A model generated the notes under the pieces. It saw only the letters and a program-made list of their open reading frames with translations. It did no database searches and was not told where the DNA came from. From a phage: DNA of 64,000 bases. This document shows, in pieces, positions 8,818 through 50,971 of this stretch. The translations under genes and the position numbers were made by a program. The DNA lies in assembly GCA_017822615.1 (NCBI GenBank), contig GCA_017822615.1_4530.1, one strand, 5' to 3'. The stretch's first letter is position 1, and each line of letters starts with the position of its first letter.

Positions 8818-9705
8818 ATGTCCGTAATTAATACTGAAACTGATCGTAAAGGCAAAACCGTAACTTATGCAACTGGTATCGTAGACTACGTTAAACTGGA
8901 TAAATTCGCTGAACCTAAAACTTTTCATTGGGAAGGAAAAACGATTGTTTCAACTCACCGAGCCTCTCTTGTTCTGAAAGAGAAAGGTGCTAAACCAGAT
9001 GAGAAAGGTGTTTGGATTTCTCTTGGTGACATTGAACTGAAAGAAGGTTATGAAAACCTGCAAGTCAAAGAAGGTGATAATTGGATCACTATTGAAAAAG
9101 GTGTAGAAGTAAGTATTGATATTGATCGCGTTGATAATAAAGGCGGTAAAACTTACTACAATACTAAAAAATCTCGTATTACAGTATTGTCTACCGATGG
9201 TGTTCAGAAGTCTAACAAATCTTCTGGCAATAAAGGTTCCAACGATGCTGCTCCTAAGCAGTCCTATAAAAAACGTGATACTGTAGGTCTGGAAACTGGT
9301 CACGCAGTAAATGGTGCACTGGAACTGATTCGTAATGGTGTTAAAGGTGATGCTTTCGATATCGCTGGGGTTGTTCAATCTGCAACTGTCACGCTGAAAT
9401 CGGAAATTGCTGAATCTCGTGGCGTTGATATTAATGATTATGATCTTGGGGCATCTGTTGGTCACGCTATTCTCAATGCTTGTAAAGACCATACCATTAA
9501 GACTGTATCTGTAGAAGATCTGATTGACTCTGCTCGTAAAGTTCTAGCTCTGTCTGATAAAGTTGCTGCTGCCATTCGTGGTTCCGCAGAACAACCTAAG
9601 AAAGAAGAGAAGAAAGAAGTTAAGAAACCTGAACCACAACCAGAACCAACTCCAAGCAATCAAGAAGAACCTCCAATGGACTTCGATGATGATATTCCGT
9701 TCTGA
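8818..9705 (+). CDS. ssb: single-stranded DNA-binding protein
   Basis: 295 aa; Gly/Lys-rich linker and acidic C-terminal tail PPMDFDDDIPF, identical in its last residues to the E. coli SSB tail. Confidence 0.8.
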   Translation: MSVINTETDRKGKTVTYATGIVDYVKLDKFAEPKTFHWEGKTIVSTHRASLVLKEKGAKPDEKGVWISLGDIELKEGYENLQVKEGDNWITIEKGVEVSIDIDRVDNKGGKTYYNTKKSRITVLSTDGVQKSNKSSGNKGSNDAAPKQSYKKRDTVGLETGHAVNGALELIRNGVKGDAFDIAGVVQSATVTLKSEIAESRGVDINDYDLGASVGHAILNACKDHTIKTVSVEDLIDSARKVLALSDKVAAAIRGSAEQPKKEEKKEVKKPEPQPEPTPSNQEEPPMDFDDDIPF

Positions 9706-48952: not shown

Positions 48953-49031
48953 TGGAGGCGGGAATCGGATTCGAACCGATGATCTCCAGCATATGAAACT
49001 GGCGAGGACGACCAGACTCCTCTATCCCGCT
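48953..49031 (-). tRNA. tRNA-Met(CAT): tRNA, anticodon CAT (Met or lysidine-Ile), CCA encoded
   Basis: Manual cloverleaf: T-arm atcgg/attcgaa/ccgat, anticodon loop TTCATAT, 6/7 acceptor pairs. Confidence 0.6.
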
Positions 49032-49037
49032 ATTATG

Positions 49038-49107
49038 TATCCCGTGCTGGATTCGAACCAGCATCACAATAAGCTGTGGAACTCTTATCCTGTAAGTCTA
49101 ACGGGAA
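49038..49107 (-). tRNA. tRNA-like gene, anticodon unresolved
   Basis: Canonical T-arm gctgg/attcgaa/ccagc and 6/7 acceptor stem, but no regular anticodon arm could be folded. Confidence 0.35.
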
Positions 49108-49112
49108 ACTGG

Positions 49113-49183
49113 TTGTTTCGACAAGAATCGAACTTGTATCTCACGATTATCAGTCGTGGGTTCTACCATTGAACTACGAAACA
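49113..49183 (-). tRNA. tRNA-Ile(GAT): tRNA-Ile (GAT)
   Basis: Perfect 7-bp acceptor stem, D-stem GTTC/GAAC, anticodon loop CTGATAA, T-loop TTCGATT. Confidence 0.75.
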
Positions 49184-49192
49184 TTTAATTGG

Positions 49193-49266
49193 TCGGAATT
49201 GCAGGATTCGAACCTGCGACAATACGCTCCCAAAGCGTACACTCTACCAAACTGAGCTAAATTCCG
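49193..49266 (-). tRNA. tRNA-Pro(TGG): tRNA-Pro (TGG)
   Basis: Perfect acceptor stem, anticodon stem TACGC/GCGTA, loop TTTGGGA. Confidence 0.75.
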
Positions 49267-49363
49267 TCATAACATTCTAAAGGTACACCGCAAAAGAAAG
49301 TGTTCGGCGGCTCCTCGTTTTTTAACTTCACACTTGAGGTAGTGACTCACCTTTGTTGTATGG

Positions 49364-49436
49364 CTGGTCTGTCTGGATTTGAACCAAACCTACGACAGTC
49401 AAAGTGTCGTGTGCTACCTGACTACACTACAAACCA
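49364..49436 (-). tRNA. tRNA-Gln(TTG): tRNA-Gln (TTG)
   Basis: Anticodon stem CGACA/TGTCG, loop CTTTGAC, T-loop TTCAAAT. Confidence 0.7.
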
Positions 49437-49534
49437 ATAAATCATTTAATGAAGGGCAACCAGAAGAAGTGTGAGAGAAGGAGAAAACCATGAGTAAAAG
49501 AGAAAGTTTTCTGGCAACCCTTTATTAAATAATT

Positions 49535-49611
49535 TGGAGCGTTATATCGGATTCGAACCGATGCCACCGACTTGGAAGGACGGGATGCTGAACCGCTAAC
49601 ACTAATAACGC
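49535..49611 (-). tRNA. tRNA-Gly(TCC): tRNA-Gly (TCC), CCA encoded
   Basis: Perfect acceptor stem, anticodon loop CTTCCAA with one U-U mismatch in the stem. Confidence 0.65.
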
Positions 49612-49619
49612 TTTGTATA

Positions 49620-49654
49620 TATTTACTATACTACATTTTACTATTGGTTGTCAA
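49620..49654 (-). promoter_or_regulatory. tRNA promoter P1 (ctaTTGACAA, TG-extended -10)
   Basis: ttgtcaatag on plus strand at 49647-49656; TATAGT-like -10; reads into tRNA-Gly. Confidence 0.5.
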
Positions 49655-49930
49655 TAGTTTTATTGAGTGGGACAGTGACGAGTATCCCATTGGGTGACTA
49701 GCCCTACGTTCGGTAAGCTAACTTAAAATAATACAAAACAAAAGTCAAATATTATTCTTCGTTGCTGTCGATGGGAGAGCCGCTTCTTCTTTTGCCCCAT
49801 CCAACCCTACTCCGGTCAAGTTTCAGGTGACTCTTTTTGTGATCAACACAATACTAAGAACACTGTCTTTCGAGCAGACCTTGTGCACAGGATACGACGA
49901 TCAATCACAGTGCTCTTAATGTTGTGTTGG

Positions 49931-50002
49931 TGCTCCCACACTGAATCGAACAGAGATCCACGGATTACAAAACCGTTGTAATAGCCATTATACTATAGGA
50001 GC
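49931..50002 (-). tRNA. tRNA-Thr(TGT): tRNA-Thr (TGT)
   Basis: Acceptor stem with one G-U pair, anticodon loop TTTGTAA, T-loop TTCGATT. Confidence 0.6.
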
Positions 50003-50008
50003 AATGCT

Positions 50009-50086
50009 GGGACTCGGCAGGATTCGATACCTGCAATTCCAGAAGCCTATTGGCGACTGGGGGGTTTACCTTAACTCTACAAGTCC
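50009..50086 (-). tRNA. tRNA-like gene, non-canonical
   Basis: Acceptor stem (6 bp plus G-U) and T-stem GCAGG/CCTGC with an 8-nt T-loop; anticodon arm could not be placed. Confidence 0.3.
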
Positions 50087-50093
50087 ATAATTC

Positions 50094-50179
50094 TGGCGAT
50101 GAGTATAGGATTCGAACCTATATTGTTCTTTCGAACACGGATTAACAGTCCGCCGCTTAAACCATTCAGCCAACTCATC
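50094..50179 (-). tRNA. tRNA-Asn(GTT): type II (long variable arm) tRNA with Asn anticodon GTT, CCA encoded
   Basis: Perfect 7-bp acceptor, 3-bp D-stem, anticodon arm GCGGA-CTGTTAA-TCCGT, 15-nt variable arm GTTCGAAAGAACAAT, discriminator G73. Confidence 0.55.
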
Positions 50180-50185
50180 TTAATT

Positions 50186-50273
50186 TGGTGGTGAGTGATG
50201 GAGTCGAACCACCCGAATCGCAATGATAACAGATTTACAGTCTGCCCCGCTACCCCTACGGAATTAACTCACC
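50186..50273 (-). tRNA. tRNA-Tyr(GTA): tRNA-Tyr (GTA), type II, CCA encoded
   Basis: Perfect acceptor stem, anticodon arm GCAGA-CTGTAAA-TCTGT, long variable arm. Confidence 0.65.
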
Positions 50274-50403
50274 TAAATACTAATATTTAAATTCTTTTTA
50301 AAATAGCCAGTGTTCACACCACTAACTATGAGGTATCGGTAAAGTGGTTACCGCCACTTGCCGAAGATTTACTCTGCTAAAGTAAGCTACATTAAAAAGA
50401 ACT

Positions 50404-50489
50404 TGGCGGTAGATGTAGGACTCGAACCTACACGCCGTTTCCGACTACAGTTTAGCAAACTGTCGTGGCTACCATTTCACCAATCTACC
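50404..50489 (-). tRNA. tRNA-Ser(GCT): tRNA-Ser (GCT), type II, CCA encoded
   Basis: Perfect acceptor stem, anticodon arm ACAGT-TTGCTAA-ACTGT, 15-nt variable arm, G73. Confidence 0.7.
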
Positions 50490-50494
50490 TAATC

Positions 50495-50585
50495 TGGCGG
50501 AAGGAGGGAGAGTCGAACTCCCAAGGCTCTTTCAAGCTCGGCGGTTTTCAAGACCGTTTTCGTCGCCACATCGATTTGCCCTTCC
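50495..50585 (-). tRNA. tRNA-Ser(TGA): tRNA-Ser (TGA), type II, CCA encoded
   Basis: Anticodon loop CTTGAAA, long variable arm, T-loop TTCGACT, G73. Confidence 0.6.
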
Positions 50586-50593
50586 ATACTTAT

Positions 50594-50623
50594 AATCTAA
50601 CATAAAATAATGTTTGTTGTCAA
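50594..50623 (-). promoter_or_regulatory. tRNA promoter P2 (ctaTTGACAA, aTGtTAGATT)
   Basis: ttgtcaatag at 50616-50625; reads into tRNA-Ser(TGA). Confidence 0.5.
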
Positions 50624-50819
50624 TAGTTTTTTAAAACATTTTACCATGAATGGTGACTCCACCAACCCCCGTTCTCCACGAACGGTGCTCTTCGAGCATT
50701 TATGTCTTCTAATATAACCGTGGCCTTTGTTTATAATGTCTGACATACTTGCCTCATTCTCTGCCACCATGATCAGTAGTGGGTTCAAATCACTTGAGCT
50801 AATTCATGTTAAAATGTTC

Positions 50820-50894
50820 TGGTGTCTTTACAAGGAATCGAACCTTGACTAAGAGTTTAGAAGACTCCTGTGCTATCCATTACACCATAAAGAC
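50820..50894 (-). tRNA. tRNA-Arg(TCT): tRNA-Arg (TCT), CCA encoded
   Basis: Perfect acceptor stem, D-stem GTGT/GCAC, anticodon loop CTTCTAA. Confidence 0.7.
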
Positions 50895-50896
50895 TT

Positions 50897-50971
50897 TGGT
50901 GGCCCTGGCTGGTTTCGATCCAGCTACCTATCGGTTATGAGCCGACAGCTCTCCCATTGAGCTACAGGGCC
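50897..50971 (-). tRNA. tRNA-Met(CAT): tRNA-Met (CAT), possibly initiator-like, CCA encoded
   Basis: Perfect acceptor stem, anticodon loop CTCATAA with three G/C pairs closing the stem; unusual T-loop ATCGAAA. Confidence 0.65.

Follow-up and report, generated by a model that had tools for sequence, protein, structure and literature searches.

We describe a tRNA gene in a 64,000-nucleotide (nt) stretch of phage DNA (NCBI GenBank assembly GCA_017822615.1, contig GCA_017822615.1_4530.1), referred to here as the window. The gene lies on the minus strand at 50094-50179 and encodes an 86-nt tRNA for asparagine (Asn; other amino acids are likewise given by three-letter code) with a GUU anticodon, an encoded CCA end and a class II-like architecture, i.e. 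with a long variable arm. Textbook long-arm tRNAs are only those for Ser, Leu, Tyr (in bacteria) and selenocysteine (Sec). Taken as a whole, our results are probably best explained by a functional phage tRNA-Asn that belongs to a virus-restricted long-arm family under selection, with the arm as a proposed shield against host immune nucleases that target tRNA. The gene itself is already known: hundreds of genomes have it annotated, and experiments have made use of its homologue in T5. The apparent novelty is the architecture, a conserved, covarying, virus-restricted class II-like tRNA-Asn family. We found no description of a long-arm tRNA-Asn in phages in the full-text papers searched, including reviews of tRNA identity and of non-canonical tRNAs; an older passing remark (1980s T5 sequencing) is possible.

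As judged by ARAGORN, the gene is a tRNA-Asn (gtt) with boundaries at exactly 50094-50179, and the Rfam tRNA model RF00005 matches it over the full model (1-71) with 62.1 bits (E = 4.8e-11; gathering score 29). Minimum-free-energy folding gives a cloverleaf in which the variable arm forms a hairpin of its own, and all helices are perfect. In RNA order, 5' to 3', the molecule reads GAUGAGU-UG-GCUGAAUGGUUUAAGC-G-GCGGACUGUUAAUCCGU-GUUCGAAAGAACAAU-AUAGGUUCGAAUCCUAU-ACUCAUC-G-CCA. All of its parts lie on the minus strand. The two strands of the acceptor stem, GAUGAGU (positions 1-7; 50173-50179) and ACUCAUC (50098-50104), form seven perfect base pairs (bp), which covary in the family and begin with G1:C72, A2:U71 and U3:A70. 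The D arm, GCU-GAAUGGUUUA-AGC (50155-50170), has a 3-bp stem (G10:C25, C11:G24 and U12:A23), and G13/A22 are unpaired, a class II pattern that phage Leu and Ser tRNAs show as well. The remaining parts are the anticodon arm GCGGA-CUGUUAA-UCCGU (50137-50153; anticodon GUU at 50144-50146), the 15-nt variable arm GUUC-GAAA-GAAC-AAU (50122-50136), which consists of a 4-bp stem, a GNRA tetraloop and a 3-nt 3' linker, the T arm AUAGG-UUCGAAU-CCUAU, recognised by fold and sequence (50105-50121), the discriminator G73 (50097) and the encoded CCA (50094-50096). The acceptor/T geometry is the canonical 7/5.

The first-pass annotation of this DNA, made from the letters alone, had described a perfect 7-bp acceptor stem, a 3-bp D-stem, a 15-nt stem-loop variable arm, G73 and an anticodon arm identical to that of Escherichia coli tRNA-Asn; sequence, fold and a comparison with asnT of E. 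coli K-12 (NC_000913.3) bear out each of these points. The window tRNA and asnT share the whole anticodon arm (17/17 nt), G26, G73 and CCA, and the T-loop GGUUCGA is present in both. They differ in that asnT, a class I tRNA, has a 5-nt variable loop (AUGUC) instead of the 15-nt arm, a 4-bp D-stem with C13:G22 instead of 3 bp with G13/A22, and U1:A72 instead of G1:C72; the acceptor sequences are unrelated. Against asnT and normal-length phage tRNA-Asn (alignment A4), the sole architectural change is that the variable loop has gained a clean insert of 10 nt. With a variable stem-loop of more than 10 nt, a 3-bp D-stem and an unpaired 13/22, the window tRNA is of class II (long-arm) architecture, and its long arm and D-stem had rightly been likened to those of Ser, Leu and Tyr tRNAs: bacterial class II tRNAs also have a long stem-loop arm, often with a GNRA loop, and a 3-bp D-stem with a 13/22 mismatch.

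The long-arm tRNA-Asn family in phages and in cells

A sensitive BLAST search with the 86-nt gene as query matched 758 phage records, and many of the alignments span the variable arm. ARAGORN, run on fetched genomes, called long tRNA-Asn(GUU) genes of 83-87 nt in Justusliebigvirus Nernie, Mydovirus Raoultella Ro1, Epseptimavirus IrmaTschudi, T5 (Tequintavirus), Novosibvirus Proteus Stubb, the T4-like Jiaodavirus Klebsiella KpV477 and a 278-kb Pseudomonas phage; the carriers belong to unrelated groups, namely T5-like and T4-like phages, Vequintavirinae and Pseudomonas jumbo phages. Long-arm members from at least seven phage genera can be aligned with the window gene over its entire length. T5 tRNA-Asn, aligned over its full length, resembles the window tRNA in its size (83 nt), arm (GUC-GAAA-GAC-AAC), 3-bp D-stem and G73, and differs from it in the arm stem (3 bp, compared to 4 bp in the window) and in the acceptor pairs G2:C71 and G3:C70. 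Compared with asnT and with the Kuttervirus tRNA-Asn, which is of normal length (75 nt), the long forms have a variable loop enlarged by one clean insert of 8-10 nt (alignment A4). As judged by sequence, these tRNAs are a viral family, characterised by GUU on an GGACUGUUAAUCC arm, by G73 and by a variable loop into which a short stem-tetraloop is inserted, and the window gene is one of its members.

To count long forms, IMG/VR was scanned with the pattern GGACTGTTAATCCN{16,24}GGTTCRA, i.e. the Asn anticodon arm separated from the T-arm by a long gap, which gave at least 120 loci; in these, ARAGORN called at least ~100 distinct GUU tRNAs of 79-91 nt. A length-blind scan (gap 8-26) found the long form in 14/120 loci among the matches listed, where many of the normal-length matches may be host genes beside prophages. 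Normal-length and long-arm tRNA-Asn(GUU) occur side by side in ten viral loci (L014, L047, L049, L051, L061, L071, L076, L081 and others), a hint that they are non-redundant.

Common as it is in large phages, the long-arm tRNA-Asn is close to absent from cellular chromosomes. Among 185,579 bacterial and archaeal species (one genome each), the long pattern found 37 stretches, of which ~17 are true long-arm Asn tRNAs, 11 of them within arrays of 7-36 tRNA genes, and a BLAST search with the gene found no match in 5,426 complete E. coli genomes with their prophages and plasmids. The first-pass annotation had considered the gene unusual whether it specified Asn or Ser: for cells this judgement stands, for large phages it does not. 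The 20 cellular stretches without a GUU call from ARAGORN were not accepted as family members: most of those inspected are partial or broken tRNA-Asn genes, some with a palindromic insert, or tRNA-like pieces that lack a matching acceptor strand.

Several of the cellular loci have features of their own. The main cellular homes of the long-arm family are Verrucosispora/Micromonospora arrays (L131, L132, L136 and L160) with 23-36 tRNA genes per 8 kb, including an 89-90-nt long-arm tRNA-Asn with U1:A72, G73 and CCA; these arrays may be of mobile origin. Metagenome-assembled genomes (MAGs) of Saprospiraceae and other Bacteroidota (L129, L134, L138, L139, L142, L149, L156 and L157) contain partial or broken tRNA-Asn copies in which the variable loop is replaced by a palindrome (CCCGATAGCTATCGGG), and in one of them (L139, 5498-5796) three such copies stand in tandem with a spacing of 128 nt next to a 75-nt tRNA-Asn that is intact. 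These copies resemble the traces of an element with tRNA-Asn as its target. In Azoarcus sp. L1K30 (L163, 114-200), an otherwise normal tRNA-Asn has a tandem duplication of ~11 nt in its variable loop (CCGTAGGTCAT-CCGTAGGTC), which may be a snapshot of an insertion arising, or an assembly artefact. Finally, MAGs of Hyphomicrobiaceae and other Alphaproteobacteria (L137, L144, L145 and L152) hold tRNA-like elements that combine the Asn anticodon arm with a variable hairpin (GGGC-GAAA-GCCC) and a good T-arm; they have no matching acceptor 5' strand, and ARAGORN gives them odd calls (Trp, Val(aac) or 'Stop').

Covariation of the arm was scored on 88 distinct long-arm Asn tRNAs aligned with MAFFT (A3), with the stem in fixed columns (50-53/62-65) picked from the window sequence and no per-sequence fitting. 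The variable-arm stem reached 0.518, compared to 0.177 ± 0.025 for shuffles, and 0/500 shuffles attained the observed value; controls in which the 3' partner was slid scored 0.26 or less. Pairs 51-64 and 52-63 are formed in 67/88 and 63/88 sequences, with 37 and 43 double changes, respectively, and occur as GC, CG, AU, UA and GU. The other four helices are 89-99.5% paired in the same alignment, with abundant compensatory change. Between genera the arm stem varies (GUUC/GAAC, GAAC/GUUC, GAGC/GCUC, AUCC/GGAU, GUCA/UGAC), inside the window phage's genus it is invariant, and the arm loop is GAAA in about half of the long-arm Asn members and GNRA in most. This pattern indicates that the family and its arm are maintained by purifying selection. 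RNAalifold, applied to the 88-sequence alignment, recovered the cloverleaf without the variable-arm stem, because arm length and register differ among sub-lineages: the exact register of 4 bp, 4-nt loop and 3-nt linker, counted from the T-stem, fits 42/109 sequences. The family is thus heterogeneous, and summaries of per-sequence geometry are descriptive and do not constitute a test. With a covariance model built from seven seeds (R1), the scores of long-arm Asn tRNAs overlapped those of Ser, Tyr, Lys and other tRNAs, which means that alignment A2 is contaminated, and R1 was not used for counts; the 100.8 bits of the window gene against R1 are circular, as the gene is one of the seeds.

The family would extend the list of long-arm tRNAs by a class II-like tRNA-Asn that is common in large phages, including the model phage T5, and it offers a natural test of how well an additional arm is borne by asparaginyl-tRNA synthetase (AsnRS, class IIb), EF-Tu and the ribosome.

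Asparagine or serine identity

In E. coli, AsnRS recognises its tRNA by the anticodon and G73, a set that can be transplanted (PMC9976931). The window tRNA has both G34 U35 U36 and G73, on an anticodon arm identical to that of the host. The identity comparison covers all distinct tRNAs of the fetched loci (long-arm Asn, n=108; normal-length Asn, n=104; phage Ser, n=127), and by it the acceptor stems of the family are classed as Asn-type, not Ser-type. Pair 1:72 is U:A in 65% (70/108) and G:C in 32% of the long-arm Asn tRNAs, U:A in 74% and G:C in 19% of the normal-length ones, and G:C in 88% of the Ser tRNAs; pair 2:71 is C:G in 41% and G:C in 39% of the long-arm Asn tRNAs and G:C in 92% of the Ser tRNAs, 85% of which have A:U at 3:70. 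G73 is found in 97% (105/108) of the long-arm and 96% of the normal-length Asn tRNAs, and positions 13:22 are G/A in 48/108 of the former as compared to C:G in 66/104 of the latter. Since A73 is invariant in the Leu (102/102) and Tyr (73/73) tRNAs of the same loci, the G73 of the window tRNA excludes both Tyr and Leu identity.

Per-sequence folding of the variable region yielded a stem of 3-4 bp with a 3' linker of 3-4 nt for Asn, 3-4 bp with 3 nt for Tyr, a 3' linker of ~2 nt for Leu, and 4-7 bp with ~1 nt for Ser. By these figures the window arm is of Tyr-like, not Ser-like, geometry, tRNA-Tyr being the nearest of the class II tRNAs. The Tyr-like arm and the frequent adjacency of Tyr and Asn genes raised the idea of an origin from tRNA-Tyr by anticodon mutation; it was rejected as the main origin because the acceptor stems are Asn-type, the insertion into the Asn body is clean and, in the window, tRNA-Tyr and tRNA-Asn have arms of unrelated sequence.

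In hosts without AsnRS, the amidotransferase GatCAB needs U1:A72 (PMC9976931), a pair that the long-arm tRNA-Asn of the Pseudomonas phage carries; the window tRNA has G1:C72 instead, which would be harmless in E. coli because E. coli has AsnRS. The window gene is in our judgement very probably a working Asn tRNA, and its product is most likely charged by the host AsnRS. Weighing against this assignment, class IIb synthetases approach tRNA via the variable-loop side, so that tolerance of the long arm by AsnRS is an assumption, and the combination of the long arm with G73, G1:C72 and C11:G24 leaves some room for seryl-tRNA synthetase (SerRS).

Were SerRS indeed to charge the tRNA via the long arm and G73, the product would be of Ser or dual identity and would insert Ser at AAC and AAU, as deliberate mistranslation or as recoding. 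Ser identity rests on the variable arm and SerRS ignores the anticodon; besides the features just named, the window gene has the 3-bp D-stem and matches the phage tRNA-Ser(GCU) nearby in overall length and layout. Two of these features discriminate poorly, G73 being shared with tRNA-Asn and C11:G24 with most tRNAs in the loci. Both G1:C72 and G2:C71 are reported to be fully conserved in E. coli tRNA-Ser (PMC9976931), and of the Ser-type acceptor set the window tRNA has G1:C72 only, with A2:U71 and U3:A70 in place of the G2:C71 and A3:U70 prevalent in phage Ser tRNAs. Its short arm stem and longer linker depart from the Ser-type arm in length and orientation, the family acceptor stems match Asn tRNAs down to U1:A72, the anticodon arm is an exact copy of that of host tRNA-Asn, and the T5 homologue helps growth to recover after cleavage of host tRNA-Asn. 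In addition, Asn makes up ~5.8% of codons, so that Ser insertion would harm the whole proteome. We consider Ser identity quite improbable, and the Ser recoding of AAC/AAU put forward in the first-pass annotation is unsupported; the Asn tRNA with an unusual variable arm, which it had offered as the other reading, draws support from GUU with G73, the Asn-type acceptor stems and the T5 rescue described below (PMC12409363).

A long arm on a non-class II anticodon is also found in allo-tRNAs and Ser-type tRNAs with non-Ser anticodons (Mukai et al. 2017, PMC5389517). These differ from the window tRNA, with its 7/5 geometry and Asn-type set, in having 8/4 or 9/3 acceptor/T geometry, Ser or Ala identity and anticodon-independent charging (PMC5389517). 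For annotation and genetic-code screens this counsels caution: a long arm with an Asn anticodon does not equal Ser recoding.

A possible role of the arm in escape from tRNA-targeting nucleases

The PARIS nuclease AriB cleaves E. coli tRNA-Asn(GUU), cutting at 40|41, and co-expression of T5 tRNA-Lys, -Thr and -Asn restored both growth and phage infection under PARIS (Belukhina et al., PMC12409363). The T5 tRNA-Asn is the 83-nt long-arm form and the only long-arm member with functional data, and its part in the rescue is in our reading the strongest support so far for the family acting as tRNA-Asn in E. coli. When the E. coli cleavage-site sequence was restored in T5 tRNA-Lys, cutting was not regained; AriB must read features distal to the anticodon loop, and an AlphaFold 3 model puts the second monomer on the D loop (PMC12409363). 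Among all T5 tRNAs listed, the only long arms beyond Ser and Tyr are on Thr(UGU) and Asn(GUU), a pair that is exactly the two additional AriB targets. The T5 tRNA-Thr(UGU), 87 nt, lies on the minus strand of locus L272 at 9134-9220 (T5_ev212, LR597659.1 30133-30219) and has the arm A-GGA-GUAA-UCC-CGUU and a 3-bp D-stem.

The variable arm departs from the tRNA core 3 nt past the 40|41 site, on the same strand and beside the D arm. T5 tRNA-Asn has U28:A42 near the AriB site, whereas the window copy is host-identical there: it has zero substitutions in the anticodon stem and none near 40|41. Any nuclease resistance of the window tRNA must consequently come from the arm or the D loop. Together with the restriction of the family to viruses and the match between T5 long arms and AriB targets, the host-identical anticodon stem makes a steric shield against host tRNA-targeting immune nucleases the leading explanation of the arm, albeit one that we put forward tentatively, at somewhat less than even confidence. 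T5 tRNA-Lys(UUU) for PARIS AriB and phage tRNA-Tyr for Retron-Eco7 are comparable in being phage copies of a destroyed tRNA, encoded in a similar cluster; published nuclease-evading phage tRNAs rely on point substitutions in the anticodon stem-loop or on overexpression, whereas the candidate feature in the window is a whole extra arm.

In the proposed explanation, the tRNA would be transcribed from the phage tRNA operon as a class I tRNA-Asn body to which a 10-nt stem-tetraloop has been added in the variable loop and whose D-stem has been cut to 3 bp. Host AsnRS would charge it with asparagine via GUU and G73 on the host-identical anticodon arm, and it would then decode AAC and AAU, which are frequent in the phage. 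The arm would prevent nucleases such as PARIS AriB from docking on or cutting the phage copy, so that Asn decoding could go on once the host tRNA-Asn pool has been destroyed. If so, the arm may account for a point left open by the PARIS work, the question of what, distal to the anticodon loop, confers resistance on T5 tRNAs, and it yields a simple hypothesis for the bench: escape from an immune nuclease without change to the anticodon stem.

A number of observations weigh against the shield. The variable arm is not mentioned in the PARIS specificity paper, whose authors consider that T5 tRNAs may be competitors rather than decoders; and the genomic tRNA-Asn of phage Bas34 is reported to be insufficient for escape from PARIS (PMC12409363), an objection if that copy is long-armed. 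Long arms are found, too, on phage tRNAs that are not among the known AriB targets, namely Cys (15%), Trp (10%) and Ile(UAU), and on 0/68 distinct viral Lys(UUU) tRNAs, Lys(UUU) being the main AriB target. In the window itself, the Thr(UGU) tRNA is of normal length and no Lys(UUU) was called.

These observations leave space for an ordinary codon-supply tRNA-Asn with an arm unrelated to defence, which would serve folding or stability, precursor processing or recognition by a phage factor, or would be a tolerated relic spread horizontally. High use of Asn codons fits this view, as do the long arms on Cys, Trp, Ile(UAU), Glu and Gly tRNAs without a known nuclease link and their absence from viral Lys(UUU); the variable arms of phage Ser and Leu tRNAs, moreover, are likewise most often stable GNRA hairpins. 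The T5 tRNA-Leu(UAG) and tRNA-Leu(UAA) (L272, 10881-10957 and 15050-15126, minus strand) are 77-nt, class I-shaped molecules with a 5-nt loop (GUUUU) and A73, which suggests that constraints on the variable region of phage tRNAs are loose; about 30-50% of the Leu tRNAs in viral loci are without a long arm. Sustained covariation over ~100 diverged sequences argues against a neutral relic, however, and the near-absence from cellular genomes against any explanation lacking a virus-specific pressure; the ten viral loci that keep both Asn forms and the coincidence of the T5 long-arm set with the extra AriB targets also speak for more than codon supply, which we regard as possible but doubtful. A decoy or sponge, i.e. 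an RNA that mimics tRNA-Asn to occupy host tRNA-targeting effectors and has little use in translation, seems improbable to us: competition or non-productive complexes were raised by the PARIS authors for overexpressed T5 tRNAs (PMC12409363), the anticodon arm is identical to that of the host target, and normal and long-arm copies occur together in some phages, but a decoy would need neither G73, the encoded CCA and the intact acceptor stem nor the U1:A72 retained in many members, and the gene sits in a normal tRNA operon. Decay into a pseudogene, which had been named at the outset as an outcome that would overturn the annotation, and a prediction artefact have only the unusual length in their favour; perfect helices, 62.1 bits in Rfam, 96.5-100% conservation within the genus and compensatory changes across families refute them, and we give them practically no credence.

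If the steric shield holds for tRNA-Asn, it could apply more widely. Insertion of a stem-tetraloop as a general viral tRNA disguise, used for Asn above all and for Thr(UGU), Cys, Trp, Ile(UAU) and others, is a speculation that we think rather unlikely. It would mean that synthetases and ribosomes accept class II-like shapes on which immune nucleases cannot dock or cut, and would add a viral class to the long-arm tRNAs beyond Ser, Leu, Tyr and Sec. In viral loci, distinct tRNAs of 82-96 nt were found for Thr(UGU) (11/65), Cys(GCA) (8/55) and Trp(CCA) (6/60). The loci with long forms of class I tRNAs range from L008 to L270, examples being L012, L021, L030, L047, L049-L051, L054, L058, L059, L108, L127, L185, L211 and L268.

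A few further long forms in viral loci are for Glu, Gly, Met, His, Asp and Pro. The Ile(UAU) tRNAs are a separate group, 91-96 nt in length, with a variable region of 21-26 nt and CAGAUUAG-like loops. Long forms of Lys(UUU) occur only in two arrays on genome contigs (L130 and L140).

Genomic setting of the gene

The tRNA cluster of the window is 95-98% identical to that of Phapecoctavirus genomes (phAPEC8, ESCO13, ZCKP1 and others), by which the window is assigned to a Phapecoctavirus-like phage. In other genomes of this genus the gene is annotated as tRNA-Asn and is 96.5-100% identical. The cluster is co-directional on the minus strand (48953-50971) and comprises Met, Arg, Ser(GCU), Tyr-like, Asn, Thr(UGU), Gly, Gln, Pro, Ile and Met tRNAs, ten of them called by ARAGORN and the eleventh, the Tyr-like one, by Rfam. 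Consensus matches to sigma-70-like sites lie upstream of its sub-blocks (51210-51181, 50623-50594 and 49654-49625, minus strand), and a terminator-like hairpin, also a consensus match only, follows the last tRNA (48839-48821, minus strand); around the cluster, such promoter and terminator matches show no enrichment over shuffles.

Directly upstream of the Asn gene, on the same strand, is the Tyr-type tRNA (50186-50273; Rfam match 50189-50273), which has GUA, A73 and a 15-nt variable arm. It is annotated as tRNA-Tyr in related phages; here it is missed by ARAGORN and reaches 39 bits in Rfam owing to its odd D-arm (UAAUUCCGUAGGGGUAGCGGGG). The Tyr, Asn and Thr(UGU) genes thus adjoin in the window, and tRNAs of these three kinds are known targets of tRNA-directed defences.

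In the 41 open reading frames of at least 150 amino acids in the window, Asn codons amount to 58 per 1000. Despite a G+C content of 39.4%, AAC and AAU are used nearly equally (446 vs 455) in these frames, and U is favoured in other NAY pairs (UAU:UAC 2:1 and GAU:GAC 3.3:1). The cluster of Klebsiella phage ZCKP1 (MH252123.1 38714-41520) is collinear with that of the window, ~700 bp longer and includes a gene annotated as an XRE-family antitoxin, from which it follows that the tRNA cluster tolerates insertions.

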